A DNA stretch of 32,908 nt from a phage, in the NCBI GenBank assembly GCA_021421665.1, contig GCA_021421665.1_4698.1. One strand, given 5' to 3'. Of this stretch, positions 3,386-32,444 are shown in pieces. Position 1 is the first letter of the stretch; every line of letters starts with the position of its first letter. The position numbers and the translations under genes were made by a program. Below the pieces are notes generated by a model. That model worked only from the letters and a program-made list of their open reading frames with translations. It ran no database searches and was not told where the DNA came from.

Positions 3386-3646
3386 ATGATTAAATACACT
3401 GCTTATCAATTAACTAAAGACCGTAAGATAGGTGTTGAGGTTAAAGCTTGGAATGAAGGACACATCACTGTAGTTATAGAGTGTCTCCAAGACAATGGTG
3501 TGATGCTAAGAAGCTACCGTTGCTTCACCAAATTACGCTGCAAGGATTTAACTGAAGAATTATTCTTACGTTGTATTGTTGAATCTATTAAACTTATTAG
3601 ACCCTACGCCAAGCAAGTTGTAGGTAATGTCACAGTAGTACATTGA
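3386..3646 (+). CDS. hypothetical protein (86 aa)
   Basis: ORF-track ORF 3350..3646; ATG at 3386 is preceded by GAGG at a suitable distance; in-frame alternatives at 3350 (GTG) and 3359 (ATG). Confidence 0.5.
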   Translation: MIKYTAYQLTKDRKIGVEVKAWNEGHITVVIECLQDNGVMLRSYRCFTKLRCKDLTEELFLRCIVESIKLIRPYAKQVVGNVTVVH

Positions 3647-4118: not shown

Positions 4119-4415
4119 ATGGAAGAAGTGATTCAAGCTAAACATGTAGGTATCATCTTTCGTGATCTAGAGCAGCGTAAAGTTGCAGGTCATACCCGTT
4201 TGGCTAAAGAAGATGATACAGCAATCGCTACTGTTGAACAAGCAGATGCCTATCGTGGGCCAGAGTTTACTCAAGGTGAAACTTGTCACCAATTGAGCCT
4301 GTCACTTTGTGACACTATGGCTAGTGTGAATGTGCAAGAAGTTGAAGATGGAGACTGTGTTAGCTACGTCTACCCTCTGGACACTGTTGCACGTATTAAA
4401 GTAATTCATAAATAA
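4119..4415 (+). CDS. hypothetical protein (98 aa)
   Basis: AAGGAG at 4108-4113 is 5 nt before ATG 4119 (ATG 4116 is also in frame); stop abuts the next promoter. Confidence 0.55.
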   Translation: MEEVIQAKHVGIIFRDLEQRKVAGHTRLAKEDDTAIATVEQADAYRGPEFTQGETCHQLSLSLCDTMASVNVQEVEDGDCVSYVYPLDTVARIKVIHK

Positions 4416-7836: not shown

Positions 7837-8836
7837 GCTTCGCAGCTTGTACAAAGACTCCGAGGTACTTGATGCAATCGAGCAAGCTACCGACGAGAAA
7901 GGTAATGTTAATTATAAGGAGATGGCACGGGTGCTATCGTGTCATCCTGTGGGTAAGAAGATTACCCGCCAGTTGGCTCGATACTGGCACGGTCAATTCA
8001 AGAAGACCAAGAAGAATGGTGGTTATTACCAGACCCTTCTGCAAGAAGATAAGCGTATCAAAGAAGAGCGTAGGCTCAGGACTCCTGACCGCTACGAGGA
8101 TTTGGCTATTGTACCACTGCCTGACTCGCCTCATCGAAGTGTACTGGTAATCCCTGATACCCATGCGCCTTATGAGCATCCAGATACTTTAGAGTTCCTT
8201 GCAGCCGTGGCAGCACGTTATCGCCCAGACACAGTGGTACATCTTGGGGATGAGGCAGACAAACATGCCTTGTCATTCCACGACTCTGACCCCAATCTGG
8301 ATAGTGCTGGAGTGGAGTTAGAGAAGGCTCGTGTATTCATGCACAAATTGCACAAGATGTTTCCTGTGATGCGCCTGTGTCATTCTAACCACGGCTCTAT
8401 GCACTTCCGCAAGGCAAGCGCTAAGGGCATCCCTGTGCAATATCTACGTACCTATCGTGAGGTCTTCTTCCCGAATGGAGGTGGCGATCAGTGGGATTGG
8501 CAGCATACGCATGTACTTGAGTTGCCGAATGGCGAACAGGTAGCGTTCAAGCATCAACCTGCTGGCGTTGTCCTAGCAGATGCAGCGCATGAGCGTATGA
8601 ATCTTGTGTGTGGTCATCTGCATGGTAAGATGTCTGTGGAGTATGCACGTAATACTCATGAGCAGTATTGGGCTGTGCAGGGTGGCTGTCTGATTGATGA
8701 GTCGTCTCGTGCATTTGCCTATGGTCGTGAGTCTAAGTACAAGCCAGCATTAGGCTGTGTGGTTATTCTGGAGGGTGTACCACACATTGTCCCGATGCAG
8801 ACCAATAGCGACAATCGCTGGGTTGGTAAGATTTAG
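7829..8836 (+). CDS. calcineurin-like metallophosphoesterase
   Basis: Motifs VIPDTHAP (D-x-H), HLGDEAD (GD), SNHG (GNH-like) and CGHLHG; start placed at TTG 7829 after AGGAGG, with in-frame ATG 7805 as alternative. Confidence 0.7.
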   Translation: MGKLRSLYKDSEVLDAIEQATDEKGNVNYKEMARVLSCHPVGKKITRQLARYWHGQFKKTKKNGGYYQTLLQEDKRIKEERRLRTPDRYEDLAIVPLPDSPHRSVLVIPDTHAPYEHPDTLEFLAAVAARYRPDTVVHLGDEADKHALSFHDSDPNLDSAGVELEKARVFMHKLHKMFPVMRLCHSNHGSMHFRKASAKGIPVQYLRTYREVFFPNGGGDQWDWQHTHVLELPNGEQVAFKHQPAGVVLADAAHERMNLVCGHLHGKMSVEYARNTHEQYWAVQGGCLIDESSRAFAYGRESKYKPALGCVVILEGVPHIVPMQTNSDNRWVGKI

Positions 8837-8903: not shown

Positions 8904-9443
8904 ATGTCACACTATGTATGTAAGAAATGCCATAATCGCTATGATAATTGCACCTGTGATTATAGTAAAGGTGAAAGAATTAAAGCAGGTGATTATGTTA
9001 TACGACGTGCTGGCTGCCGCACTTTAGAGTGGAATAAGGTATGTAACCAATTAGGAAAGAAAGGGGATGCAACATTCAAAGTTACAAAGGATGAGCCTGT
9101 CAGCAGCGCTATTATGCTTGAAGGTATCGAAAATAGAGAATGGTATGCACCTTATTTCGAGCGAGTAGCTGCTCCCCAAGTTGTATCTGAGTCCAACATG
9201 TTGGAAAACAATATGGTTACTCAGCCTAAGCACTACGAGTTCTTCGAAGGTGTAGAAGCAATCACTATCATTGCCCGTAGTATGACCGAGAAGCAATTCG
9301 CTGGCTATTGCATGGGTAACGCCTTGAAGTACCGCCTGCGTGCAGGTAAGAAGTTCAACACTGAAGAAGACCTGAAGAAAGCAGATTACTACAAAGAGTT
9401 ATTCCAGAAGCATCGTCACGAATGTATTGATGAGGACATTTGA
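8904..9443 (+). CDS. T7 gp1.7-like protein (nucleotide kinase family) with N-terminal Cys cluster
   Basis: C-terminal block ARSMTEKQFAGYCMGNALKYRLRAGKK...KADYYKELFQKH resembles recalled T7 gp1.7 (ARSMTVEQFKGYCFGNILKYRLRAGKK...KADFYKELFEKH); N-terminal CKKCHNRYDNCTC; GGAGG SD. Confidence 0.6.
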   Translation: MSHYVCKKCHNRYDNCTCDYSKGERIKAGDYVIRRAGCRTLEWNKVCNQLGKKGDATFKVTKDEPVSSAIMLEGIENREWYAPYFERVAAPQVVSESNMLENNMVTQPKHYEFFEGVEAITIIARSMTEKQFAGYCMGNALKYRLRAGKKFNTEEDLKKADYYKELFQKHRHECIDEDI

Positions 9444-9618: not shown

Positions 9619-10562
9619 ACATCTTCCAATTCTTAGGTCTTCCAGAAGACCACCGCAATCACCCCTTCATGCTGGTGAAGCATCGCGGTGAAGTACCTGA
9701 GAAGAAACTTACTTTTCCATGTTATGCACAGGTGAAACGTGATGGAATATTTAGTGCTGTTGTGGTACGTAATGATGGTGCTGTTGCCATCTTTGGTCGT
9801 ACTGGTAAGAAGCTCGCAAATGTTGAAGACTTGGAAAAGTTATTTAGTGTATTTCCTGTCGGGTTGTATCTTGGTGAGTTGCAATCTATGGCTGTTGATA
9901 TATATCTTGAAGCTCTATCAGGGGTAGTAAATCCCAATCGCACTGAGCCACTCGATTTCATAGGCCAGCAGATTAAAGACAACCTGTATATCGACTTCTT
10001 CGATATGTTAACTATTAAGGCATTCCATGATGGATTCACTGATGTTTCTTATCTCAAACGTTACGATGCTTTACATCGTCGCATCGGCGCTCATCTTAGC
10101 GGGAACAACGCTATCCTCCCTATTACTCCTTGCCATAATGAGCGAGAAGTTGAAGCGTTTGCACAAGAGCAAATAGATGCAGGCCGAGAAGGTGCTGTGT
10201 TTAAACTGGACTGCGACTATGAAGCAGGTCACAAAGGTTATCGTCAGACTAAAGAAGTCCGTAAGGTAACTTATGACCTTACTTGTATTGGCTTTGAAGA
10301 AGGTAAAGGTAAGTACAAGGGTAAGGTAGCTAACCTCATTTTCAAATGGAAAGGAGGCAAGACAATCAAAGCTATGTTAGGTAAAGGGTGGACTCATGCA
10401 GATGCAGAACAGATGTTCCACGATATTAAACATGGCGGACGATTGAATGTCATTGGTAAAATCTTTGAAGTAAAAGGTCTTCAGGATTCAAGCAAGGGCA
10501 ACATTCGTCTGCCCAAAGCGGGAGAATTAAGACATGACAAAGATGAACCAGATTTCTTTTGA
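9615..10562 (+). CDS. ATP-dependent DNA ligase (T7 gp1.3-like)
   Basis: Adenylation motif KxDG present (AQVKRDGIF); AAGGAGG SD before ATG 9615. Confidence 0.88.
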   Translation: MNIFQFLGLPEDHRNHPFMLVKHRGEVPEKKLTFPCYAQVKRDGIFSAVVVRNDGAVAIFGRTGKKLANVEDLEKLFSVFPVGLYLGELQSMAVDIYLEALSGVVNPNRTEPLDFIGQQIKDNLYIDFFDMLTIKAFHDGFTDVSYLKRYDALHRRIGAHLSGNNAILPITPCHNEREVEAFAQEQIDAGREGAVFKLDCDYEAGHKGYRQTKEVRKVTYDLTCIGFEEGKGKYKGKVANLIFKWKGGKTIKAMLGKGWTHADAEQMFHDIKHGGRLNVIGKIFEVKGLQDSSKGNIRLPKAGELRHDKDEPDFF

Positions 10563-14034: not shown

Positions 14035-14057
14035 ATTTACTGGACACTATAGAAGGG
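14035..14057 (+). promoter_or_regulatory. SP6-type phage RNAP promoter ATTTACTGGACACTATAGAAGGG upstream of the capsid gene
   Basis: Predicted +1 G at 14052; the transcript begins with hairpin gggaga-AATG-tctccc at 14055-14070. Confidence 0.8.
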
Positions 14058-15307: not shown

Positions 15308-15315
15308 TACCTATG

Positions 15316-15348
15316 CCCTATCTACCTTGCGTAGGTAGGGTTCTTTTT
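15316..15348 (+). terminator. terminator-like hairpin (ccctatctac / gtaggtaggg) followed by TTCTTTTT
   Basis: 10-bp stem with one G-U pair, then a T-tract; immediately after the capsid gene, the position T-phi occupies in T7. Confidence 0.6.
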
Positions 15349-18504: not shown

Positions 18505-19232
18505 TGGCTATAGGTTCAGCCGTTATGGCTGGTATGTCTTCTATTGGCAGTATGTTTGCAGGTAGTGGTGCAGCAGCCGCTGCTGGAGGGACTGCCGCAA
18601 CAGTAGGTGGCGGAGGTTTACTAGGTTCCGTGGGAGGTTTCCTAAGTGGTTCCACTGGTGGCTTCTCCAATGCAGGCTTGCTTAGTGCAGGTATGCAAGG
18701 TCTAGGGCTTATAGGTAACCTTTTTGGTGGAAGGGATGAAGCCAAAGCTATGAAGAGGGCTCAGGAGGAGCAATGGCGGCAGCAGTTAATTGCTACGCAG
18801 GAGGCATACAAAACAGTGGCAGATGCAGAACGCTCTGCTGCTAAACAGTACCATGCCGACGCAATAAGTAATCAGGCTTCTCTGCTACAGCAGCGAGCAC
18901 AGGTTGCATTGCTTGCTGGTGCTACTGGTACTGGTGGTAACTCTGTGTCTTCTATGCTAAACGACTTAGCAGCAGAAGGCGGCAGGAACCAGAGTACAAT
19001 TATTGATAACTATGAGAATCAGAAGATTAACTTCACTAATCAGCTTAAGTCTATTCAGCGTGGCGGACAGATGCAAATGCGTGAGTTTAAGAAGCCTTCT
19101 GCTGTAAGCACCTTGGTTCAAGGTATCCCGAGTCTGGCTTCTGCCTATGTAACAGGTAGTAAATCGGGTATGGCATTAGGTAAAGCATTAACTGATTCTC
19201 GTACCTATTCATCTGGAACAAGAGGTATTTAA
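18504..19232 (+). CDS. internal virion protein (gp14-like)
   Basis: 242 aa with Gly/Ala-rich N-terminus and Gln-rich helical region; translationally coupled within the structural block. Confidence 0.65.
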   Translation: MAIGSAVMAGMSSIGSMFAGSGAAAAAGGTAATVGGGGLLGSVGGFLSGSTGGFSNAGLLSAGMQGLGLIGNLFGGRDEAKAMKRAQEEQWRQQLIATQEAYKTVADAERSAAKQYHADAISNQASLLQQRAQVALLAGATGTGGNSVSSMLNDLAAEGGRNQSTIIDNYENQKINFTNQLKSIQRGGQMQMREFKKPSAVSTLVQGIPSLASAYVTGSKSGMALGKALTDSRTYSSGTRGI

Positions 19233-22180
19233 TGGCAATTGAGCGACAAGCAGTACAAGGTCTGCCACAAGTGCAGGCCACTTCTCCTAATGTCATGACC
19301 TTTGCACCTCAGCGAGTTGGAGGTGTGGAGGCTGGCGTGGCTTCTACCTCCGGTAGTCGATTTATCGAAGACCTTATTCGAGCAGCCAGCAGTGTAGCTG
19401 ATGTTACCACTGGTATCCTTAATCAGAAGATTGAGGAAGATAAGGTTGTTCAAATGGAACGGGCATATAATGGACTGATGCCTTCTGAGGATGCAACTCG
19501 TGGCGGCGCTCGTGCTAACATGCTTGTCAAGGCTCAACTGCTGGCAAATGACGAAGCAGCACGGATGAAGGATATGGCTACTCGTTTCCAAGGAACGGAT
19601 GATGAGTGGACACAACTCATGGTTGATTCTCGTAATGAGATGCAGAATAAGCTGTTCCAGCAATACCCAGAGCTGCAAGGTGACAAAGATACAATGCGTA
19701 TGGTCACTAACGTCTTCCAAGAGCAGCAGCCTCAGATTTGGGCTACACGAACACAGCATAAACTTGACCGGGAACAGGCAGACCGTGAAGATACCTTTGA
19801 TGGGCGAGTGGCTTCTACTTGGGATTCCAGCATCGACCCAGAAGCCTCTGGTTATGCTTTACAGGAAAGAATCCGCGAAGGACTGACACAGGGCTTACTT
19901 CCTGAGCAGATGCACAAGAAGCTGGTGGCGCGGGCTATTTCACTTGCTCAGGGTGGTGATATCAGCATGGCTGAAGCCTTGAAGTACGTGAAGGACGATA
20001 AGGGTGTTTCTGTCTATGCTAAGAATCCGCAGCTTATCACAGCTATCACTAACGGTAATGCAGTTTGGGCTAGGAATAATGTTGCTGATGTGACTCGCAT
20101 GTCTTTTGAAGTCAAAGAATCCTATCTTGCAGGTGACTTGACGGATGAAGAATTACTGGAGCGAGCACAGCACATTAATAGCCTGACAGGGAACTCTGTT
20201 TTCTCTAATCCAGAACTAGAAGCATTGATGCGCCAACGAGCTAAGCAGAATGCAGAGCTAGGTGCAATGCAGGATATGCGACGTGAACTTTACTCTGACC
20301 GTATGACTGGCTTCCAAGGCAAGACGGATAAAGAGAAGAAAGCCTATGTTGATCTTATCAAGCAAGATAGTCAAACCTATGCAGACCAGCAAATCAAACA
20401 ACGAGGTGTGGACCCTTACAGCCAAGAGGCTGAAGCCATACGTGGTGAAGTAGAAGTACAGCGCCTGCAATTCATGAACTCAAAAGGGTTGGTGGATGAT
20501 ACCTTTGAATCCCGCATCAAAGCGATGGAGTCTTTGCTATCACCAGAGCACTTTGCTAAAGGTGAACCACAGGAATTACTGACCATTCGTAAATTGTGGG
20601 AGCAGCTACCTGAAGAGAGCCGAGGTGTCTTTGGTGACACTGTAAACGGTTATATGGATAATTACTCTACTGCCTTACAAATGGGTGAGACGCCTTTGCA
20701 GGCTGCAAGGTTTGCACGTGAAGCACAGCAGAAATTCTCTCGTACTGAGAAAGAAACTAAGAAGTTCAACTCAGCTATTGGAGATGCATTGGATGTAGTA
20801 TCAGGTGCTGGCTGGTTCGATGGTAAGACAGAAGTGTCTGACTTAGGTAAAGCTATTGCAGAAGAAGAACTACGGGCTAAGGCTAATATGTTGTGGTCTA
20901 GCGGTATGCGTAACATGGATTCCATCAAGAAGGCTTTAATTACTTGGGGCAATAAACGTTACACTCAATCAGAAGATGCAAAGACTTCCGGTGGCTATTT
21001 CATTAAAGGTGATTACACTTCTGCATCTGATATGCTTATGTCAGTTGGGAAAGGCGTAAATCCTACCGATGTACCTCTGGCACTTGGTAGGTATGTAGAA
21101 ACACAGATGCCAGAATTGAAGAAGGAACTTCAAGAGTGGGAAACTAAAGATGATATATACATTGATTACAATGAACAGAAAGGTACTTTCGTGATTCGTG
21201 CTGGTGCAGCAGGTCGCCCTCTTTCTGGAGTAACCCCTATAACCTCTTTAGATACCACTTCACTGCTAGATTCTGCCTATCAGAAGAAAGTAGAAGAACG
21301 AGATAAAGGTGAGTATGTTCACCCGTATCGTACAGATATTGGTGCACAAGAACCTATGCCAGCTAAGCCAACTGCCAAAGATATTGGTAAGTTTGGCCTA
21401 GCTAACTTTCTCATGTCTTCTGCTTTCGCCTCTGGTGAGAATCTACCTTCTAACTTCGAAATTAACTATCGAGGAAATATGCAACAATTCTATGACAAGT
21501 TAGCTATGGATGAGAACAAAGACAAGGTTGGCTTTAATAATGCAACTGGTACTTTTACTCCATACAAAGATGCTCACGGTGAATCTATTGGTTATGGTCA
21601 CTTCTTGACGGAGGAAGAGAAGCGGAACGGGTACATTAAGATCGGAGATGAATTAGTCCCGTATCGAGGGTCTATGTCTCAGCTTACAGAGAGCAAAGCT
21701 CGTGCTCTTATGGAGCAAGACGCTAAGAAGCATGTGCCACCCACTCGTGACTGGAAGATTCCATTTGACCAGATGCATCCTGCACAGCAACGTGGTTTGA
21801 TGGACTTAACCTACAATCTAGGTAAAGGTGGAATCCAAAATGCACCACGTGCTCTTGCTGCATTCAAGGCGGGTAAACTTACTGAAGGCTTTATCGAAAT
21901 GCTTGGCACTGCATCTAGTGAAGGTAAGCGTATCCCTGGCCTACTGAAGCGACGCGCTGAGGCTTACAATATGGCATCTGCTGGTGGTGTACCTAAGATT
22001 ACCGAAGTAGAAACTCGTGAAGATGGTTCTATGTGGGTTAAGTTCGGTGGACCTATGCCAGCAGGTTCTGTCTCAGCGTGGACTCATAAACGTATTGGTG
22101 CGGATGGCTGGTATCAAGTTTATGAGGCTGCACCTACCAAGTTAGCTAAAGGCTCTAAAGTAGGTAAAGTTAAGTTGTAG
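19232..22180 (+). CDS. internal virion (ejection) protein with C-terminal T4-lysozyme-like (GH24) domain
   Basis: 982 aa; C-terminal block YKDAHGESIGYGHFLT...GLMDLTYNLGKGG resembles recalled T4 lysozyme YKDTEGYYTIGIGHLLT...AINMVFQMGETG. Confidence 0.8.
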   Translation: MAIERQAVQGLPQVQATSPNVMTFAPQRVGGVEAGVASTSGSRFIEDLIRAASSVADVTTGILNQKIEEDKVVQMERAYNGLMPSEDATRGGARANMLVKAQLLANDEAARMKDMATRFQGTDDEWTQLMVDSRNEMQNKLFQQYPELQGDKDTMRMVTNVFQEQQPQIWATRTQHKLDREQADREDTFDGRVASTWDSSIDPEASGYALQERIREGLTQGLLPEQMHKKLVARAISLAQGGDISMAEALKYVKDDKGVSVYAKNPQLITAITNGNAVWARNNVADVTRMSFEVKESYLAGDLTDEELLERAQHINSLTGNSVFSNPELEALMRQRAKQNAELGAMQDMRRELYSDRMTGFQGKTDKEKKAYVDLIKQDSQTYADQQIKQRGVDPYSQEAEAIRGEVEVQRLQFMNSKGLVDDTFESRIKAMESLLSPEHFAKGEPQELLTIRKLWEQLPEESRGVFGDTVNGYMDNYSTALQMGETPLQAARFAREAQQKFSRTEKETKKFNSAIGDALDVVSGAGWFDGKTEVSDLGKAIAEEELRAKANMLWSSGMRNMDSIKKALITWGNKRYTQSEDAKTSGGYFIKGDYTSASDMLMSVGKGVNPTDVPLALGRYVETQMPELKKELQEWETKDDIYIDYNEQKGTFVIRAGAAGRPLSGVTPITSLDTTSLLDSAYQKKVEERDKGEYVHPYRTDIGAQEPMPAKPTAKDIGKFGLANFLMSSAFASGENLPSNFEINYRGNMQQFYDKLAMDENKDKVGFNNATGTFTPYKDAHGESIGYGHFLTEEEKRNGYIKIGDELVPYRGSMSQLTESKARALMEQDAKKHVPPTRDWKIPFDQMHPAQQRGLMDLTYNLGKGGIQNAPRALAAFKAGKLTEGFIEMLGTASSEGKRIPGLLKRRAEAYNMASAGGVPKITEVETREDGSMWVKFGGPMPAGSVSAWTHKRIGADGWYQVYEAAPTKLAKGSKVGKVKL

Positions 22181-22244: not shown

Positions 22245-25200
22245 ATGGAACAAGATATTAAGACTAATTGGGCTGGATATGTCCAGTCTACTCCTGAGCC
22301 GTTTTCTATTGAGGCGGCTCCGGTATCGGCTCCTACGATACGCCAGCGTAATGAGTTACAAGAGCAAGTTCTTGAAGCTAAAGCGGACGCGGATATCTTA
22401 GGGGCCGTAGGTGCTGCCTTCCAGAATGAGTGGTTGGCATTCGGAGGTAAGAGGTGGTATGACCGTGCCACTGCTGATTTCCCACCTCAGCCTGACTTTG
22501 AAATCCAGCCAGATCGACGTGAAGCACTCCGCTTCAAATATGGCACAGATATGATGCAGAAAATCATAGAAGGAGTCAGATCCGAGGATGAGCTAAACTT
22601 CCGTATTCAGAATGCAGATGATGACCTTGAGCGTAACAAACGTATCGCTCAGGCAGGCTGGGTAGGATCTGTGGCAACGATTGGCGCTGCTGTGCTTGAC
22701 CCTGTGGGATGGGTTGCCTCTATCCCAACTGGCGGTGCAGCTAAGGTTGGACTTGTAGGGCGTGCTGTACGTGGTGCTGTCGCTGCTGGTGTGAGTAATG
22801 CCGCTATTGAGTCCGTATTAGTCCAAGGCGACATGACCCGTGATTTAGATGACATTATGGTAGCACTAGGCTCCGGTATGGCTATGGGTGGCGTCATTGG
22901 CGCTGTAGCGCGTGGTAGGGCCACTAAGCTCAGTGAGCAAGGGGATGACAGAGCGGCAAGCGTTGTGCGCAGTGCAGATGCAGGGGACCGCTATGTTCGC
23001 GCCGTTGCCGATGACAGTATCGGTGCGATGCGTGTTAAGGGCGCAGAGGTTCTCACTGAGGGTGCATTCGATATCCCCAGCAAAGGTGAAGATTTACTGA
23101 AAACCTTACAGCGAGAAGGTAATGCGATTGATATGACACCTCGCCGCTGGGCAGGAACTATGTCTGCCCTTGGTACTGTCGTGCATTCCTCTCAGGATGC
23201 AAGTATCCGAGGTCTTGGTGCTCGCCTGTTTGAATCTCCCCAAGGCTTAGGTATGCAGAAGGCATCTGCTAGTCTCATGCAGAATACTAACTTGAATCGC
23301 CTGAAGTCTGCCGATATGAACCGTTTTAATGATGGGTTTGATTTATGGCTTAAAGAGAATAACATCAATCCAGTGGCAGGGCATACCAACTCTCATTATA
23401 TACAGCAATACAATGAAAAGGTGTGGGAGGCAGTACGTATTGGCATGGACGAGTCTACACCTAAGTCTATCCGTATGGCGGCTGAGGGACAACAGACTAT
23501 GTACAGAGAGGCGCTGGCTTTACGTCAACGCTCTGGTGAAGCGGGGTTTGAAAAGGTAAAAGCTGACAACAAATATATGCCTGATATCTTTGATAGTATG
23601 AAAGCCAGAAGTCAATTTGCTATGCATGATAAAGAAGATATCATTGAGTTATTCTCTCGCGCTTACCAGAATGGCGCTCGTAAGATTCCAAAGGAAGCAG
23701 CAGATGAGATTGCACGAGCACAGGTAAATCGTGTTGCTGATGCTACCTTAACTGGACGGCTTAGTTTTGAAAAGGCAATGTCAGGTCAAACCAAGGCAGA
23801 GTATGAAGCTATCATGCGCAAGGCTGGCTTTAGTGATGAAGAGATTGAAAAGATGGTAGAAGCTCTGGATAACAAGGAAACCAGAGATAATATCTCTAAC
23901 CGAGCTAAGATGAGCCTAGGGTTAGATGTTACTCAAGAGTACAATGGCATTCGTATGCGTGATTTCATGAATACCAATGTGGAAGAGCTAACGGATAACT
24001 ATATGAAAGAGGCGGCAGGTGGTGCTGCATTGGCTCGCCAAGGTTTCTCTACCTATCAGGCGGCGCTTAATGCAATTGACCTTGTAGAACGAAATGCACG
24101 AAACGCCGCTAAGGATAGTAAAGCAAGCCTAGCCTTAGATGAAGAAATTCGACAGATGCGGGAAGGCATTCGTCTAATCATGGGCAAGTCTATTGATGCG
24201 GACCCTCAAGCGTTATCCACTAAAATGATGCGCCGTGGTCGTGATATAACGGGTGTACTCAGATTGGGCCAGATGGGGTTTGCACAGCTAGGCGAACTTG
24301 CTAACTTCATGGGTGAGTTTGGTGTTGCTGCAACCACTCTGGCTTTAGGTAAGCAATTCCGCTTCACCTCTAAGGCTTTGCGTAATGGCGATGGCTTCTT
24401 CCGAGATAAGAACTTGGCAGAAGTAGAGCGAATGGTAGGCTACATTGGTGAGGATAACTGGTTAACAACCAAGGGTGCACGTCCCGATGAGTTTGGTGAT
24501 GTAACCACAGTGCGAGGGATGATGGCCCACTTTGACCAATCCATGAACTCAATACGCCGTGCTCAGACAAACCTATCACTCTTCCGCATGGCTCAAGGTT
24601 CTCTGGAGCGAATGACTAATAGGCAAATAGCCCTATCTTTCATTGACCACCTTGAAGGTAAGAAGGTTATTCCTCAGAAGAAACTGGAGGAACTTGGTCT
24701 TACTCAAGAGTTCATGTCTAGTCTACAGAAGCACTACGATGCTAATTCTAAGGGTTCTGGTCTGCTTGGCTTCGATACCATGCCTTATGCAATGGGTGAA
24801 ACCTTAGCTAATGCTATCCGTCGTAAGTCTGGTTTAATTATTCAGCGTAACTTCATTGGTGATGAAGGTATTTGGATGAACAAAGCACTAGGTAAGACGT
24901 TTGCACAGCTTAAGTCATTCTCTCTGGTATCTGGTGAGAAGCAATTCGGCCGAGGTATCCGGCATGATAAGATCGGTCTAGCTAAGAAGACAGCCTTTGG
25001 CTTTGCTTTGGGTTCGATGGTGTATGCAGCGAAAGCCTATGTGAACTCTATCGGACGAGAAGACCAAGATGAATATCTTGAAGAGAAGTTATCGCCTAAA
25101 GGATTAGCCTTTGGTGCGATGGGCATGATGAGTACAACTGCTGTATTTAGTTTAGGTGGAGACTTCTTAGGCGGCCTAGGTGTTCTACCTTCTGAGTTAG

Positions 25201-25430
25201 TGCAATCCCGTTATGAGGCTGGCTTTCAGACTAAGGGTTTGATAGACCAAATACCATTAGTAGGTGTTGGTCAAGATGCATACCGTTTAGCAGATTCTAT
25301 AACTAAGTATGCAGAGGGTGATACAGATGGTGTAGATGTAGCACGTAGAGTTTTACGCTTAGTGCCACTGACTAATGTAATAGGTGTCCAAAACGCATTG
25401 CGTTATGGCTTAGATGAACTGGAGGACTGA
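22245..25430 (+). CDS. large internal virion / core protein (gp16-like)
   Basis: 1061 aa, largest gene of the block; GGAGG SD; Gly/Ala-rich segment suggests a membrane-interacting region; assignment by size and position. Confidence 0.75.
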   Translation: MEQDIKTNWAGYVQSTPEPFSIEAAPVSAPTIRQRNELQEQVLEAKADADILGAVGAAFQNEWLAFGGKRWYDRATADFPPQPDFEIQPDRREALRFKYGTDMMQKIIEGVRSEDELNFRIQNADDDLERNKRIAQAGWVGSVATIGAAVLDPVGWVASIPTGGAAKVGLVGRAVRGAVAAGVSNAAIESVLVQGDMTRDLDDIMVALGSGMAMGGVIGAVARGRATKLSEQGDDRAASVVRSADAGDRYVRAVADDSIGAMRVKGAEVLTEGAFDIPSKGEDLLKTLQREGNAIDMTPRRWAGTMSALGTVVHSSQDASIRGLGARLFESPQGLGMQKASASLMQNTNLNRLKSADMNRFNDGFDLWLKENNINPVAGHTNSHYIQQYNEKVWEAVRIGMDESTPKSIRMAAEGQQTMYREALALRQRSGEAGFEKVKADNKYMPDIFDSMKARSQFAMHDKEDIIELFSRAYQNGARKIPKEAADEIARAQVNRVADATLTGRLSFEKAMSGQTKAEYEAIMRKAGFSDEEIEKMVEALDNKETRDNISNRAKMSLGLDVTQEYNGIRMRDFMNTNVEELTDNYMKEAAGGAALARQGFSTYQAALNAIDLVERNARNAAKDSKASLALDEEIRQMREGIRLIMGKSIDADPQALSTKMMRRGRDITGVLRLGQMGFAQLGELANFMGEFGVAATTLALGKQFRFTSKALRNGDGFFRDKNLAEVERMVGYIGEDNWLTTKGARPDEFGDVTTVRGMMAHFDQSMNSIRRAQTNLSLFRMAQGSLERMTNRQIALSFIDHLEGKKVIPQKKLEELGLTQEFMSSLQKHYDANSKGSGLLGFDTMPYAMGETLANAIRRKSGLIIQRNFIGDEGIWMNKALGKTFAQLKSFSLVSGEKQFGRGIRHDKIGLAKKTAFGFALGSMVYAAKAYVNSIGREDQDEYLEEKLSPKGLAFGAMGMMSTTAVFSLGGDFLGGLGVLPSELVQSRYEAGFQTKGLIDQIPLVGVGQDAYRLADSITKYAEGDTDGVDVARRVLRLVPLTNVIGVQNALRYGLDELED

Positions 25431-26404
25431 TGGGTTATACTTTCACAGAACACACAGCCAACGGTACGCAAGTGACTTATCCTTTTAGGTTTGCTGGTAG
25501 GGATAAGGGTTATCTTCGTGCCTCAGATGTAAGAGTGGATACTCTTCAAGGTGATACTTGGACTAAGGTCACATCTGGCTGGCAACTAACTGGTACAAAC
25601 CAGATTACTTTTGATGTAGCACCAGCAGCAGGTTTGAAGATTCGTATTCGAAGGGAAGTACCAAAAGAGAACCCATATGCAGAGTTTGACCGTGGTGTTA
25701 CCCTTGATATGAAATCTTTGAATGGTTCCTTTATTCATAACCTAGAGGCAACCCAAGAACTTCTAGATGGGTTTTACCCTGAAGGGTACTACATCAAACA
25801 GAATGTATCATGGGGCGGTAATAAGATTACAGACCTAGCAGATGGTACAGCACCAAATGATGCAGTGAATAAAGGGCAGCTTGACTCCATTGATAAGAAA
25901 CACACAGACTGGAATAAGACGCAAGATGAGCAGATTGATGGTATCATTCGTAGCTTCGTCAGCAACGTATCCCACCGTTCTTTACCTTGGACCTATTCAG
26001 CAGTAGGTGGTGAAGATAAGGTAAAACCTCCTTTCTTCTTCCAAGCAGCACTAGTGTGGCGCGACGGTGTATATCAGGATGAGCAAGCTGGTGCTTTTGA
26101 AATCAGAGATAATACTATATTTCTAGCTAAGCCTTTGCTTAGAAAAGGTGAGCGCGTGTCTGTTCTCCTTGGCTCTCGTGTAGCAGTACCAGACAAAGGT
26201 GAGGTTCTCCAGCTTGAGTTCAACACAGTGGCAGGCTATACGGAGATAAATCTAGGTATGCGTGTATCAGAGGTGTCTGTCTTTCTTGATGGGCTTCTCC
26301 AATCTCTAGGCTCTTATAAGCTTATAGATGACAATAAGTTGGTATTTAGTGAGCCACTACCAGATTGCACCGTACTGGTTCAAGTTAAATCTGATACAAA
26401 GTAG
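25430..26404 (+). CDS. tail fiber/tailspike adaptor protein (T7 gp17 N-terminal-domain-like)
   Basis: 324 aa; N-terminus TANGTQVTYPFRFAGRDKGYLRASDVRV resembles the T7 gp17 N-terminal virion-attachment region; no long receptor-binding domain. Confidence 0.7.
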   Translation: MGYTFTEHTANGTQVTYPFRFAGRDKGYLRASDVRVDTLQGDTWTKVTSGWQLTGTNQITFDVAPAAGLKIRIRREVPKENPYAEFDRGVTLDMKSLNGSFIHNLEATQELLDGFYPEGYYIKQNVSWGGNKITDLADGTAPNDAVNKGQLDSIDKKHTDWNKTQDEQIDGIIRSFVSNVSHRSLPWTYSAVGGEDKVKPPFFFQAALVWRDGVYQDEQAGAFEIRDNTIFLAKPLLRKGERVSVLLGSRVAVPDKGEVLQLEFNTVAGYTEINLGMRVSEVSVFLDGLLQSLGSYKLIDDNKLVFSEPLPDCTVLVQVKSDTK

Positions 26405-26415
26405 GAGGTGTATTT

Positions 26416-26610
26416 GTGGTAGACTCAGATATCATCAATGATACGCTGAAGTGGGTTCCGGGTGGTATTGTAACCAGTACAACCCTCTTAGGTATCAGTT
26501 GGGAAAACTGGGTTTACATCTTAACCGCAATCTATACTATGTTGCAGATTGGGGAATGGGTATGGACCCGAGTTATAGGATGGAGGGAGAAGCGTGAGCG
26601 TACACAATAA
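26416..26610 (+). CDS. holin (T7 gp17.5-like)
   Basis: GTG start 7 nt after AGGAGG; 64 aa, one transmembrane segment; SWENWVYILTAIYTMLQIGEWV resembles recalled T7 gp17.5 SLNEWFYVAAIAYTVVQIGAKV. Confidence 0.8.
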   Translation: MVDSDIINDTLKWVPGGIVTSTTLLGISWENWVYILTAIYTMLQIGEWVWTRVIGWREKRERTQ

Positions 26611-26896
26611 ACATGCAGCTACAGAGGATGAGGTTGGCATTCTGCATGGTGCTATTACCAAAATCTTCAATAAGAAAGCACAGGCTATACTGGACACTAT
26701 AGAAGAAGACCCAGATGCAGCACTGCATTTAGTGTCTGGTAAAGACATTGGTGCTATGTGCAAATGGGTTCTTGATAATGGTATTACCGCTACACCTGCT
26801 GCACAGCAGGAAGAGTCCAAGTTGTCTAAGCGCCTCAAGGCTATCCGAGAGGCATCTAGTGGTAAGATTATTCAGTTTACAAAAGAGGACAATTAA
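26594..26896 (+). CDS. terminase small subunit (gp18-like)
   Basis: 100 aa, GTG start after GGAGGGAG, immediately upstream of the large terminase; positional assignment. Confidence 0.65.
   Translation: MSVHNKHAATEDEVGILHGAITKIFNKKAQAILDTIEEDPDAALHLVSGKDIGAMCKWVLDNGITATPAAQQEESKLSKRLKAIREASSGKIIQFTKEDN
26685..26707 (+). promoter_or_regulatory. intragenic SP6-promoter-like sequence CTATACTGGACACTATAGAAGAA
   Basis: Core CTGGACACTATAGAAGA is intact but the two upstream positions differ from all intergenic copies; lies inside the small terminase coding sequence. Confidence 0.35.
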
Positions 26897-28794
26897 TGGC
26901 TAAGGCAAGAGAATCACAAGCGGAGGCTCTTGCCAGATGGGAGATGCTACAGGAGTTACAGCAGACCTTTCCTTACACAGCGGAAGGTTTGCTTCTCTTT
27001 GCAGATACAGTTATTCATAATCTGATTGCAGGCAACCCTCATCTGATTCGTATGCAGGCCGATATCTTAAAGTTCCTATTCTATGGGCACAAGTATCGAC
27101 TCATCGAAGCGCCTCGTGGTATCGCTAAGACAACACTCTCAGCAATCTATACAGTCTTCCGTATCATCCATGAACCACATAAGCGTATCATGGTTGTATC
27201 CCAAAATGCCAAGCGAGCAGAGGAAATCGCCGGTTGGGTAGTTAAAATATTCCGTGGCCTAGACTTCCTTGAGTTTATGCTACCTGACATATACGCTGGA
27301 GATCGTGCATCCGTCAAAGCCTTTGAGATTCACTACACGTTACGCGGCAGTGATAAGTCGCCTTCTGTGTCCTGTTATTCTATTGAAGCAGGTATGCAGG
27401 GTGCTCGTGCGGATATTATCCTAGCAGATGACGTAGAGTCTATGCAGAATGCTCGTACAGCAGCAGGTCGAGCCTTACTTGAGGAATTAACCAAGGAGTT
27501 TGAATCTATCAACCAGTTTGGTGATATCATTTATCTTGGTACACCTCAGAACGTAAACTCTATCTACAACAACCTACCTGCTCGCGGCTACTCTGTTCGC
27601 ATCTGGACTGCACGTTACCCTTCGGTGGAGCAAGAGCAATGCTATAGTGACTTCCTTGCACCTATGATTGTGCAGGATATGAAGGACAACCCAGCACTTC
27701 GCTCAGGTTATGGCTTGGATGGCAACAGTGGTGCACCTTGTGCCCCTGAAATGTACGATGATGACGTCCTGATTGAGAAGGAAATATCGCAAGGTGCTGC
27801 TAAGTTCCAGCTCCAATTCATGCTTAACACTCGCATGATGGATGCAGACCGCTATCCTCTACGTCTGAATAACCTCATCTTCACCTCATTTGGCACAGAG
27901 GAAGTCCCTGTGATGCCTACATGGAGTAATGACTCTATTAACATCATTGGAGATGCACCTAAGTATGGCAATAAACCTACAGACTTCATGTATCGACCTG
28001 TTGCCAGACCATATGAATGGGGTGCTGTTACCCGTAAGATTATGTATATCGACCCGGCGGGTGGCGGTAAGAATGGGGACGAAACGGGTGTAGCGATTGT
28101 CTTCCTGCATGGCACATTCATTTACGTGTATCAGTGCTTCGGAGTACCGGGCGGATACCGTGAATCGTCTCTGAATCGCATTGTGCAGGCCGCAAAGCAG
28201 GCGGGTGTTAAAGAGGTATTCATTGAGAAAAACTTTGGTCATGGCGCGTTTGAGGCGGTAATTAAGCCATACTTTGAACGTGAGTGGCCCGTTACACTGG
28301 AAGAGGATTACGCTACCGGACAGAAAGAGTTGCGTATCATTGAGACGCTAGAGCCGCTCATGGCGGCGCACAGGCTCATCTTCAACGCTGAGATGGTCAA
28401 GTCTGACCTTGAGTCAGTACAGCACTATCCGCTTGAACTACGCATGTCCTATAGCCTTTTCAATCAAATGTCGAACATCACGATTGAGAAGAACAGCCTC
28501 CGGCACGATGACCGCTTAGACGCTCTGTACGGCGCTATACGGCAATTAACTTCTCAGATAGACTATGACGAGGTTACACGGATTAATCGCCTCAGAGCGC
28601 AGGAGATGCGCGATTATATCCAAGCTATGAATACACCTCACCTCCGCAGGGCAATGCTCTATGGAGATTATGGGACTGAGCGAAGAGTGACCAACACTTC
28701 TGTAGCGATGCAGCAGCGGGTTTATGGTCAGAACTACCGGAATAAGTCTTCCAATAGAAATACCATTTCTGCAAGGATTTCAAGGACTTATTAA
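26896..28794 (+). CDS. terminase large subunit (gp19-like)
   Basis: 632 aa; Walker A-like EAPRGIAKTT; acidic catalytic stretch ADIILADDVE; position after small terminase. Confidence 0.92.
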   Translation: MAKARESQAEALARWEMLQELQQTFPYTAEGLLLFADTVIHNLIAGNPHLIRMQADILKFLFYGHKYRLIEAPRGIAKTTLSAIYTVFRIIHEPHKRIMVVSQNAKRAEEIAGWVVKIFRGLDFLEFMLPDIYAGDRASVKAFEIHYTLRGSDKSPSVSCYSIEAGMQGARADIILADDVESMQNARTAAGRALLEELTKEFESINQFGDIIYLGTPQNVNSIYNNLPARGYSVRIWTARYPSVEQEQCYSDFLAPMIVQDMKDNPALRSGYGLDGNSGAPCAPEMYDDDVLIEKEISQGAAKFQLQFMLNTRMMDADRYPLRLNNLIFTSFGTEEVPVMPTWSNDSINIIGDAPKYGNKPTDFMYRPVARPYEWGAVTRKIMYIDPAGGGKNGDETGVAIVFLHGTFIYVYQCFGVPGGYRESSLNRIVQAAKQAGVKEVFIEKNFGHGAFEAVIKPYFEREWPVTLEEDYATGQKELRIIETLEPLMAAHRLIFNAEMVKSDLESVQHYPLELRMSYSLFNQMSNITIEKNSLRHDDRLDALYGAIRQLTSQIDYDEVTRINRLRAQEMRDYIQAMNTPHLRRAMLYGDYGTERRVTNTSVAMQQRVYGQNYRNKSSNRNTISARISRTY

Positions 28795-28815
28795 TTACTG
28801 GACACTATAGAAGGA
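28793..28815 (+). promoter_or_regulatory. SP6-type phage RNAP promoter AATTACTGGACACTATAGAAGGA
   Basis: Starts at the terminase stop; predicted +1 G at 28810; followed by a 130-nt AT-rich leader with TAGGT repeats and hairpin gggtgtac-TACT-gtacaccc (28887-28906). Confidence 0.8.
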
Positions 28816-28946
28816 AGGCCCAGAGAATAAGAGAAATAATAGGTAATATATAGGTTAACCTAGGTTATATAGGTATGCCTTAGTATGGGTGTACTACTGT
28901 ACACCCTATTCCTTCCTTACTATATTTACATAATAGGAGAGAGACA

Positions 28947-29225
28947 ATGGCTAATGATTATAGTAGTCAACCATTAACAGGTAAGTCTAAGAGAAAGCAG
29001 GTACAACCTGTAAGTGAAGCACTAATGCTTCCGGTAATCCCAAAAGAGGAAGCTAGTAAGAAAAGCAATGTTATTAATGATGCCACCAAATCAGGTAAAC
29101 AGAAAGGGGCAATGGTATGCCTTGAAGTGGACGATGGTGTATTGAAGATTGCTATCGCGGTTGATGGCAAAGAAGATTCAGAGTGGAAGTTAGTGACAGT
29201 GGAACCCACTGTTACCCCAGCTTAA
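28947..29225 (+). CDS. hypothetical protein (92 aa), paralog A of a tandem pair
   Basis: AGGAGAGAGA SD; shares the block SGKQKGAMV-LE--D--L-IA-A and C-terminal VTPA with the next gene. Confidence 0.6.
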   Translation: MANDYSSQPLTGKSKRKQVQPVSEALMLPVIPKEEASKKSNVINDATKSGKQKGAMVCLEVDDGVLKIAIAVDGKEDSEWKLVTVEPTVTPA

Positions 29226-29243: not shown

Positions 29244-29528
29244 ATGGCTAAATATGGTGAAGGTTCTGTTACTGGTCAGGCTTTTCGAGTAAAAGCAGTA
29301 CAAACTATTGCAACGGCAATCCCTATGCCTGTTGTTAAAGAAGCAGACCTTAAGAGTAAAGATCACCCTATAAACATCAAACACCTGTCAGGTAAACAGA
29401 AAGGTGCAATGGTTGCTCTTGAGAAAGCGGACACAACCTTACATATTGCTGTTGCACGTGGTAGTGAACCAACAGACCCTTGGGATGTAACTGGTATGGA
29501 ATCGGACGCTGTTACTCCGGCAGGGTGA
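29244..29528 (+). CDS. hypothetical protein (94 aa), paralog B of a tandem pair
   Basis: GAGGAGGA SD; shares SGKQKGAMVALE and a VTPAG C-terminus with the preceding gene. Confidence 0.6.
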   Translation: MAKYGEGSVTGQAFRVKAVQTIATAIPMPVVKEADLKSKDHPINIKHLSGKQKGAMVALEKADTTLHIAVARGSEPTDPWDVTGMESDAVTPAG

Positions 29529-29532
29529 TACC

Positions 29533-29880
29533 ATGATGCTTAACAAATACTTCAAGCGTAAAGAGTTCGCTTGCCGTTGTGGATGCGGTACATCCACTGT
29601 TGATGCTGAGTTACTACAGGTAATCACAGATGTGCGTGAGCACTTTGGCGTACCTGTAGTTATCACCTCTGGTCATCGCTGCGTTAAGCACAATACCAGT
29701 GTAGGTGGGGCCAAGAACTCCATGCATCTTACAGGTAAGGCTGCTGATATTAAAGTATCTGGCATCTCACCTTCTGAAGTGCATAAGTATCTTACTGGCA
29801 AATACCAAGGTAAGTACGGCATTGGTAAGTATAATTCCTTCACGCACATTGATGTACGCGATGGGTGTGCACGATGGTAA
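29533..29880 (+). CDS. peptidase M15-family zinc peptidase, probable endolysin
   Basis: N-terminal EFACRCGCG and zinc-binding pattern SGHR...SMHLTGKAADI...THIDVRD; located in the lysis region. Confidence 0.75.
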   Translation: MMLNKYFKRKEFACRCGCGTSTVDAELLQVITDVREHFGVPVVITSGHRCVKHNTSVGGAKNSMHLTGKAADIKVSGISPSEVHKYLTGKYQGKYGIGKYNSFTHIDVRDGCARW

Positions 29881-30454: not shown

Positions 30455-30477
30455 ATTTAGGTGACACTATAGAAGAG
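30455..30477 (+). promoter_or_regulatory. canonical SP6 promoter ATTTAGGTGACACTATAGAAGAG upstream of the tailspike genes
   Basis: Exact 23 of 23 identity to the SP6 promoter as used in cloning vectors; predicted +1 G at 30472. Confidence 0.9.
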
Positions 30478-30548
30478 ATAGAGTGGCGATCATTTGGTCG
30501 CCTTTACTCAAGGTGCTCATGGTGGGCGCTTTAAGTAAAGGAGGAAAC

Positions 30549-32444
30549 ATGGCTCTAACTAGACTAACGTCAGCCTTGGTTAGTATCAAGTCTTCCGTGG
30601 TAGGTACTGTCAAGAGAACCATTGCTAACAAGTTTGACCTTGATTTATCTCTGGAGGATTTTGGTGCAGACCCAACTGGCAATACAGACTCTACCGCGGC
30701 TGTTATAGCAGCCCTTAGTAGTCGTAAACGTATAGTCCAAAAAGGTGGAGGTATCTACCGACTGGATGGCGCGGTTGTTGTCCCAACAGGTGATGTCCAT
30801 TTTGAAGGGGCAGGTATAGGCAAGACTGTCTTCAGATTCAACCACTTCACACAAGGTTTCAGACTTGGTGATGAGGCTGACTCAGGTAACAGGTATATTC
30901 ATGTCTTCCGCAAAGCCACTATTGAACGGCCAAACTATGCATCATACACTGGACAGATTAGCCCTAAATCTTTGTATATCTCAAACTCTAGAAACGGATT
31001 GGTAGAAGATATTGATCTGTCAGGTTCTATCGGTTACGGGATACAGTTTGATTATTCAGACACCTACGTAATGGTTCGCAGGTGTTATGTGCATGATCAT
31101 TTCGGTGGTAGCTCCGTGGCGGTTGGTACTGATGGTATCCACTTCTATCGAACAAAAGACTTCTGGGCTATTGAAAATACAGTGGCTCGTGTTGGTGACG
31201 ACGCAATCAGTTGTGGTACTTTTAACTTTGCCTACCCTGTGAGTAATGGTCATATCTTATTTAACAAGATATACAATACACAGGGCACCATCAAGATTTA
31301 CACCAAAGTATCTGGTGTTACAGTCAAGGGTAACTATATTGATGGGTCAGTACAGGGCGGTGTGTATATCACGAACGATGCAAACGCACCAGAAAACGCG
31401 GCTATTAATGACATTACAATAGAAGACAACAAGTTCTACAACATCTTCCCAAACGTGGAAACAAATATAGAGGCTGGACCTTTACGTATCCGCGGTTGGA
31501 AGGGTGGTGCTTGCTCTTTTAACAATATCATTTTCAAGGACAACTACTGCTCAAACACTTACGCTGGAATTAACTTTCTTGTTAACTCTGCCAACCAACG
31601 ACTCAGAAACCTCTATGTAGAGGGGAACATCTTCTTTGTTCAAGCCTTGGGTACAACAAACTCAAGATCTGCAATAATGCTACAGTGCTGTGATGAGAAC
31701 TTAGTTGTTCGCAATAATACCTTCAAAGATACATCTGGTGGTCTCTTGCAGATTGACGCTGTTGGTTCTGGTTTCACTGCAGAACCTTCATCCAATGGTA
31801 GGTTTACCATCACAGGCAACCAAGTGGAAGGATGGAACAAATCAGTAACGGTTGGTCGTAGTGCGCTACGCGGTATCTTCTTACGGCAAAACTTATATGA
31901 CTGCATTGTTGAGATAACCAATAACAAACTTCAATATCAGTACACTAGTGGCTCTGCCGCAAAAGGTCGTGCAGTTGAGACGGCTGGTGTTCACCCTGAT
32001 AGCAGGTTTGAGAACAACGTACTAGATGGTAATGTGTTGTTTAACTCAAACAATGGCGGATACTTTGGTTCAAACAAAACCATAGCTGACCTAACAAGTG
32101 CACCGGGGCCGCGCTCTGGCACACACCAGCGTGGTAGCTCTTTGAGGACAGAAGTACCTACAGCTACAAGGTACAACGAGTATCTGATAGTTAAATCTGG
32201 AACTCTTGATACTATTTCCGCAACAGTAACAATAGACTCTGGTTCATACTCAGGGACTATAACATCTGGCTCATTACTACCCGGTGTATATGTGACAGTC
32301 GCAGGGTTGTCTGATGTGTTACGTGTATTGCGTGTGGCTGGTAGCTCTGTGTTATTTGACTCAAAGGCATCAGCTACTGTAACAGATGCTGCAACAGTAA
32401 ACTCCAACCCAACATGGTTGGCCCGTTCATTAGTACCAGCATAG
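30549..32444 (+). CDS. tailspike protein 1 (631 aa), probable beta-helix capsule depolymerase
   Basis: AAAGGAGG SD before ATG 30549 (ORF-track start 30483 has none); N-terminal DFGADPTGNTD motif typical of pectate-lyase-fold tailspikes; repetitive Asn/Gly/Thr-rich beta-strand-like sequence. Confidence 0.8.
   Translation: MALTRLTSALVSIKSSVVGTVKRTIANKFDLDLSLEDFGADPTGNTDSTAAVIAALSSRKRIVQKGGGIYRLDGAVVVPTGDVHFEGAGIGKTVFRFNHFTQGFRLGDEADSGNRYIHVFRKATIERPNYASYTGQISPKSLYISNSRNGLVEDIDLSGSIGYGIQFDYSDTYVMVRRCYVHDHFGGSSVAVGTDGIHFYRTKDFWAIENTVARVGDDAISCGTFNFAYPVSNGHILFNKIYNTQGTIKIYTKVSGVTVKGNYIDGSVQGGVYITNDANAPENAAINDITIEDNKFYNIFPNVETNIEAGPLRIRGWKGGACSFNNIIFKDNYCSNTYAGINFLVNSANQRLRNLYVEGNIFFVQALGTTNSRSAIMLQCCDENLVVRNNTFKDTSGGLLQIDAVGSGFTAEPSSNGRFTITGNQVEGWNKSVTVGRSALRGIFLRQNLYDCIVEITNNKLQYQYTSGSAAKGRAVETAGVHPDSRFENNVLDGNVLFNSNNGGYFGSNKTIADLTSAPGPRSGTHQRGSSLRTEVPTATRYNEYLIVKSGTLDTISATVTIDSGSYSGTITSGSLLPGVYVTVAGLSDVLRVLRVAGSSVLFDSKASATVTDAATVNSNPTWLARSLVPA

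Follow-up and report, generated by a model that had tools for sequence, protein, structure and literature searches.

Promoters of T7-family RNA polymerases inside coding sequences are well known in phage T7, where phi3.8, phi4c, phi4.3 and phi4.7 are of this kind, and T7 also has the late "booster" promoters phi13 and phi17. The promoter-like site described here, which lies inside the small terminase gene (TerS) of a phage, resembles these T7 promoters in being located in an upstream gene and in its suitability for re-initiation in a long operon past a leaky terminator. It differs from them in being the only re-initiation candidate in the whole block of tail, internal-protein and packaging genes. 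To our knowledge, T7 lacks promoters both within its terminase genes 18 and 19 and immediately ahead of them. Promoters inside coding sequence are also found in K1E (at 10190) and SP6 (at 9112), in both cases near the 3' ends of genes. Promoters of the K1-5/K1E type share with the TerS site the sequence from -14 to +5, the strand and a +1 G with a GAAG start. Elsewhere, however, they are intergenic or overlap gene ends, whereas the TerS site lies deep inside its gene, 91 nt from the start and 190 nt from the end.

A second in-gene site was found in the internal virion protein gene of SP6-type late modules, where TTA GGT GAC ACT ATA GG encodes LGDTIG. Both the SP6-like phages and the Vectrevirus members that carry this module keep it (L056-L063 were also examined). 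Like the TerS site, it reads GAC ACT ATA in the frame Asp-Thr-Ile, its mismatches are confined to -17 to -15, and it lies in a promoter-poor late region. Unlike the TerS site, it is in another gene and has the SP6-type GGT at -12 to -10. In a group of Klebsiella phages, GCT (Ala) replaces ACT (Thr) in this site, which breaks position -6, and the core match is lost. The site does not occur in the DNA analysed here, in which the corresponding gene (19232-22180) is of the K1E type. SP6 promoters have been stated to occur 12 times (PMC11880802). Our own scan of SP6 found 10 canonical sites and the in-gene one, which suggests that in-gene sites may already be counted in the total of 12.

No promoter is annotated at the TerS site in the GenBank records among the matches listed (of 101). 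Neither transcript 5' ends nor in vitro transcription for this site in any relative was found in the literature searched, the SP6, K1-5 and K1E genome papers being outside that search, and the same literature gave no mention of the site and no transcription start mapping for any Molineuxvirinae phage. The promoters listed in the KBNP1315 supplement are of an unrelated type.

The window, that is, the whole stretch of 32,908 nucleotides that was analysed, comes from a Vectrevirus of the K1E/K1-5 type and not from an SP6-type phage. Its best DNA matches are 90-97% identical, with 90-94% identity over 2.4 kb and up to 97.5% across 121 nt around the site. The promoter consensus of the window is of the K1-5 type (ACTGGA) and not of the SP6 type (AGGTGA), and the TerS site itself has CTG at -12 to -10 as in the K1-5 type, where the SP6 type has GGT. 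The earlier note, made from the sequence, had named SP6 RNA polymerase as the enzyme for this site. This has to be corrected: the cognate enzyme would be the phage's own K1E/K1-5-type RNA polymerase, the gene of which is not within the window.

Two other features of the window concern its mosaic structure. The promoter before the tail-spike gene (30483-32444), at 30455-30477, is an exact SP6-type consensus (ATTTAGGTGACACTATAGAAGAG), whereas its equivalents in K1E, EC120 and K1-5 are of the ACTGGA type. This difference hints that the tail-spike module and its promoter were acquired together from an SP6-type phage. In addition, K1-5, K1E and most relatives align with high identity only from about 26491 on, within the holin gene. 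The genes upstream of this point (22245-25430 and 25430-26404) diverge much more strongly, and a mosaic boundary is therefore placed there.

The codons GCT ATA CTG GAC ACT ATA GAA GAA run across the site and encode AILDTIEE in the TerS frame, so the location in coding sequence given by the earlier note was confirmed. A local consensus of 22 nt, ATTTACTGGACACTATAGAAGA, was derived from the promoters of the window, and the site agrees with it at 20 of the 22 positions. The only deviations are a C in place of A at -17 and an A in place of T at -15, and from -14 to +5 the two sequences are the same. Both -12 to -8 and -7 to +1 are intact, ending on the +1 G; the resulting CTGGA CACTATA G is the majority promoter type of the window. 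The earlier description of a full core with two upstream differences, shared with seven other promoters, therefore holds. The A at -17 and the T at -15 belong to the upstream AT-rich element; they are universal in 47 accepted promoter instances and absent from the site, and judged by this pattern the two mismatches may cost much activity. The site is oriented as all genes of the window are, with a translatable gene downstream. Coordinates are collected in Table 1.

Table 1. Features at and around the promoter-like site in TerS, with the in-gene sites of two related phages (positions are those of the window unless another phage is named).
Feature	Position	Strand	Basis and remarks
Promoter-like site, -17 to +6	26685-26707	+	Sequence read directly, CTATACTGGACACTATAGAAGAA; inside TerS codons 31-38
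Predicted transcription start, +1 G	26702	+	Placed by alignment with the seven other promoters; putative RNA start GAAGAAGACCC
Seven other same-core sites	-17 at 3646, 4414, 5692, 8831, 14035, 28793, 30455		Consensus/core match
Nearest upstream promoter, before the major capsid gene	14035-14057	+	Consensus/PWM scan
Strong terminator-like hairpin with T-run, after the capsid gene	15315-15341	+	Terminator scan
Class II holin gene (gp38)	26416-26610	+	PHROG 920, PF10746; overlaps TerS start
Small terminase gene TerS (gp39, K1E numbering)	26594-26896	+	PHROG 891, E = 9e-26; PF11123, 60 bits
Shine-Dalgarno-like AAGAGGA	26883-26889	+	6 nt before TerL ATG; read from sequence
Large terminase gene TerL (gp40)	26896-28794	+	PHROG 17672, 15524, 38; PF22530
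Next downstream promoter, overlapping the TerL stop and serving genes 41-45	28793-28815	+	PWM scan, 38.1 bits
Terminator-like hairpin after TerL	28887-28906	+	Terminator scan
In-gene site, phage SP6 (L035)	29393-29415		CGCTAGGTGACACTATAGGTGCC
In-gene site, phage R4596 (L038)	29625-29647		CATTAGGTGACACTATAGGAGTA

A position weight matrix (PWM) was built from the 47 accepted promoter instances of five Vectrevirus genomes (the window, K1E, EC120, R4596 and K1-5). The accepted instances score 25.7-40.9 bits and the TerS site scores 27.6 bits. Everything else on both strands of the window scores 5 bits or less. When the consensus was searched with at most 3 mismatches, 8 matches were found in the window and 0 in each of 100 dinucleotide-preserving shuffles. 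A chance match was ruled out by the absence of shuffle matches together with the PWM scan. In an exact search of IMG/VR, a collection assumed to hold about 1e11 bases, the 19-mer of the site gave one unrelated match. It is in the portal gene of L051 (IMGVR_UViG_3300025101_003119) at 4157-4179, reads AAATACTGGACACTATAGAAGGT and encodes EILDTIEGD. The contig is an unrelated one of 6 kb with 41% G+C and carries a large terminase gene followed by the portal gene, and no other promoter-like site was seen on it. In so large a collection this match is probably due to chance.

The fit to the promoter was compared with what the protein demands. AILDTIEE can be encoded in 6912 synonymous ways, and for promoter fit the one used takes 2nd place; the sole better encoding differs at +6 and gains 0.2 bits. 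The codon-usage-weighted probability of such a fit is 1.2e-4. Both Ile codons in the site are ATA, which makes up 14.6% of the Ile codons in this genome. From -16 to +6, each synonymous position carries a base that is found in real promoters. Both mismatches (the -17/-15 set) fall on non-synonymous bases, in GCT (Ala) on the second and in ATA (Ile) on the first. In a proteome-wide control of 28,690 codon windows, covering 29 window genes in three registers, the only peptide stretch able to encode at least 25 bits was this site, which realises 27.6 of the possible 27.8 bits. The runner-up peptide, VLDAIEQ at 7863-7885, could reach 24.0 bits by recoding and actually scores -7.6. Since the runner-up is not optimised, there is no general codon bias towards the motif. 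The synonymous ranking, the codon usage and the proteome-wide control rule out that the sequence is dictated by the protein. On these scores, the site is now as near to the consensus as the protein permits.

TerS genes were gathered from IMG/VR, metagenomes and GenBank phage records. The site is kept in all of the 26 distinct Vectrevirus-type TerS sequences, and -14 to +4 is unaltered in 23 of them. Among those that retain it are R4596, 101118B1 and Raoultella phage P3a, with a local identity to the window of only about 85%, and L011, with 87.8% identity in its TerS gene. The core exceptions are L008 (-7, C to T), L011 (-8, A to G, changing Asp to Gly) and L010 (+3, A to G); the -7 base of L008 is also present in an accepted K1-5 promoter. 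Because these three lineages carry core changes, the comparison indicates that the site is not indispensable. The single freely varying position is -16 (T or A), which is variable in real promoters too.

Synonymous diversity was measured in overlapping six-codon windows along TerS and TerL codons 1-400 in 22 distinct related sequences. For TerS codons 32-37 it was 0.031, versus a mean of 0.257 over degenerate codons. This is the 3rd lowest value among 373 six-codon windows (0.8th percentile). Conservation set against synonymous variation, the check proposed in the earlier note, thus goes beyond what the protein needs, in line with the 2nd rank among the 6912 encodings. Two other tracts are equally low in synonymous diversity without obvious reason, at 26825-26851 (TerS codons 78-86) and at about 27281-27298 (TerL codons 30-35).

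Outside Vectrevirus, no promoter was found at this TerS position in Zindervirus SP6, Acadevirus PM116, Ulipvirus Koku, L015-L020, L022 and L028-L033. With the exception of L022, these outgroups encode AILDAIE as ATC CTN GAT GCT ATC GAG with variable third positions. The most divergent of them, L022, has the peptide ALLKEIE, and the site is likewise absent. Nor do all phages with CTGGA-type promoters have the TerS site: L028 uses such promoters and lacks it. TerS is colinear, with no insertion, across all genera compared. The exchange of Ala for Thr (GCT to ACT) lifts the best attainable score from 21.2 to 27.8 bits. The site would thus have originated from an AILDAIE-coding sequence by synonymous changes and this one Ala-to-Thr exchange. 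From the distribution of the site, a single gain in the Vectrevirus ancestor appears to be the simplest and most likely history.

TerS encodes 100 amino acids. Its GTG start is inside the holin gene and its TAA stop overlaps the ATG of TerL; its identity is also given by the annotation of relatives. TerL is the first complete gene 3' of the site, 194 nt from the +1. No promoter above 5 bits was found by the PWM scan in the about 11.3 kb between the hairpin at 15315-15341 and 26685, a stretch made up of the tail, internal-virion-protein, adaptor and holin genes. The position of the downstream promoter at 28793 is conserved, being shared by all genera examined. In KAW1A4500 and R4596 the annotation gives a terminator at the equivalent of the hairpin after TerL. 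The order of elements at 28793-28906 is odd, in that a terminator-like hairpin comes about 70 nt after a strong promoter and the next gene starts at 28947. Several relatives carry inserted homing-endonuclease genes. These lie between TerS and TerL in EC120 (L037, 36045-36488), mutPK1A2 (L042, 2758-3090) and Mt1B1_P10 (L043, 2756-3199), and such a gene lies inside TerL in K1E (L036, 38777-39310). In EC120, mutPK1A2 and Mt1B1_P10, a transcript from the internal site would cover the endonuclease gene first.

If the site is active, the polymerase would bind at -17 to -5 and initiate at G26702. The RNA would contain neither the holin gene nor the 5' third of TerS, and full-length TerS could not be made from it. 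It would carry TerL with its own ribosome-binding site AAGAGGA, from which TerL could be translated independently. The transcript may end at the hairpin at 28887, which is likely the 3' end for part of the transcripts, or read through it. In this way TerL mRNA would be restored at the far end of the 11-kb promoterless stretch after the capsid terminator, and holin expression would not be raised. The earlier note had suggested a weak internal promoter that boosts large-terminase and lysis-gene expression. The weak internal promoter is favoured by its score within the range of accepted promoters, by its codons and by its retention throughout the genus, and a boost of TerL would be the expected effect. 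The lysis-gene part did not stand: since the genes of the lysis region are served by a stronger promoter at 28793, with the hairpin at 28887-28906 after it, the specific beneficiary would be TerL.

The site could instead be an inactive or near-neutral promoter look-alike that had a single origin in the Vectrevirus ancestor, either through drift in a predisposed peptide or as a short gene-conversion patch taken over from a genuine promoter, and that has persisted through a young clade with protein constraint on most of its bases. This explanation is unlikely, though several observations agree with it. Pairwise identity over TerS and TerL is 86-99%, which makes the clade a shallow one; other TerS tracts are equally poor in synonymous changes without known reason; both mismatches are at positions that are invariant in real promoters; and the core is changed in three lineages. 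The same 19-mer also occurs once in the unrelated portal gene of L051, which has no other such site, so ILDTIE can be encoded in this way without promoter function. In contrast, neutrality does not account for a near-maximal promoter spelling of this peptide with a chance of about 1e-4, or for the fact that the only promoter-capable peptide of the proteome is optimised and the runner-up is not. The site is also identical in members that are about 15% divergent locally, for which 0.85^23 gives about 0.02, and its synonymous diversity is at the 0.8th percentile. A conversion patch predicts identity with a particular promoter, and beyond the consensus no such identity was seen. Loss of an older element explains the distribution much less well. 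According to this reading, which the earlier note had raised as a decayed promoter, an ancestral intergenic promoter was absorbed into coding sequence and the site is what is left of it as it decays. The two mismatches at otherwise invariant upstream positions would fit, but the reading is very improbable. With TerS colinear and the site lacking in four other genera and several metagenomic lineages, their peptide being written in unrelated codons, a single gain is more parsimonious than decay. Moreover, only protein-constrained bases are mismatched and wherever a base is free it fits the consensus, contrary to what random decay would give.

Two further explanations keep the selection and change its object. 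A polymerase-binding site might be selected for a role other than mRNA synthesis, such as replication priming, polymerase-dependent concatemer processing and packaging, or, as a shared sequence, the promotion of recombination between related phages. The argument for such a role is analogy with T7 biology, in which secondary replication origins coincide with promoters, and it would suit the position of the site within the packaging gene cluster and the homing-endonuclease insertions nearby in EC120, mutPK1A2, Mt1B1_P10 and K1E. We regard it as improbable. No AT-rich origin-like tract was found 3' of the site, and, since the genomes of these phages carry terminal repeats, TerS is not expected to contain a pac site. 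A role at a recombination boundary was dropped as unsupported, with the mosaic boundary to K1-5/K1E located at about 26491 in the holin gene rather than at the site. Nothing in the data points specifically to any of these roles. The synonymous conservation could also come from an mRNA hairpin in which 26688-26699 pairs with 26730-26741. An imperfect 12-nt inverted repeat, TACTGGACACTA / TAGTGTCTGGTA, indeed brackets the predicted start at these positions; a 12-bp stem including G:U pairs is predicted, and most pairs are kept in relatives. However, the folding z-score is only -1.53, which is not significant, and no Rfam family matched the hairpin. Midway along the 3' arm, two synonymous positions show uncompensated variation, and the pair is lost in 8 of 22 sequences at one of them and in 4 of 22 at the other. 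A hairpin would also leave the 20/22 promoter match unexplained, and as the cause of the conservation it is hardly credible.

What was observed here is the match to the consensus, the optimised choice of codons, the retention among relatives, the distribution over the phylogeny and the location; from these we infer polymerase binding, initiation, the strength of the promoter and the benefit to TerL. The site is probably a genuine promoter, though an attenuated one, of the phage's own T7/SP6-family RNA polymerase, held by selection inside TerS. That it represents de novo promoter birth in an essential gene, at the sole capable peptide and kept at the maximum strength permitted by the protein, is a more tentative proposal, which we put at slightly below even. 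If true, it would be a clean natural case of dual-coding selection, and the supply of large terminase would be uncoupled from the preceding holin and small-terminase genes. With the internal-virion-protein gene as a second independent case, it would be a general way to re-prime a long late operon. The wider significance is limited, in-gene promoters being well known in T7-like phages. For the phages of the K1E/K1-5 type, which are used in phage therapy and engineering, an active site would change the transcription map by adding a TerL-specific transcript that excludes the holin gene, and recoding or refactoring of the terminase region would remove the promoter unknowingly. It would also be an example of a regulatory signal fitted into the coding sequence of a compact genome.
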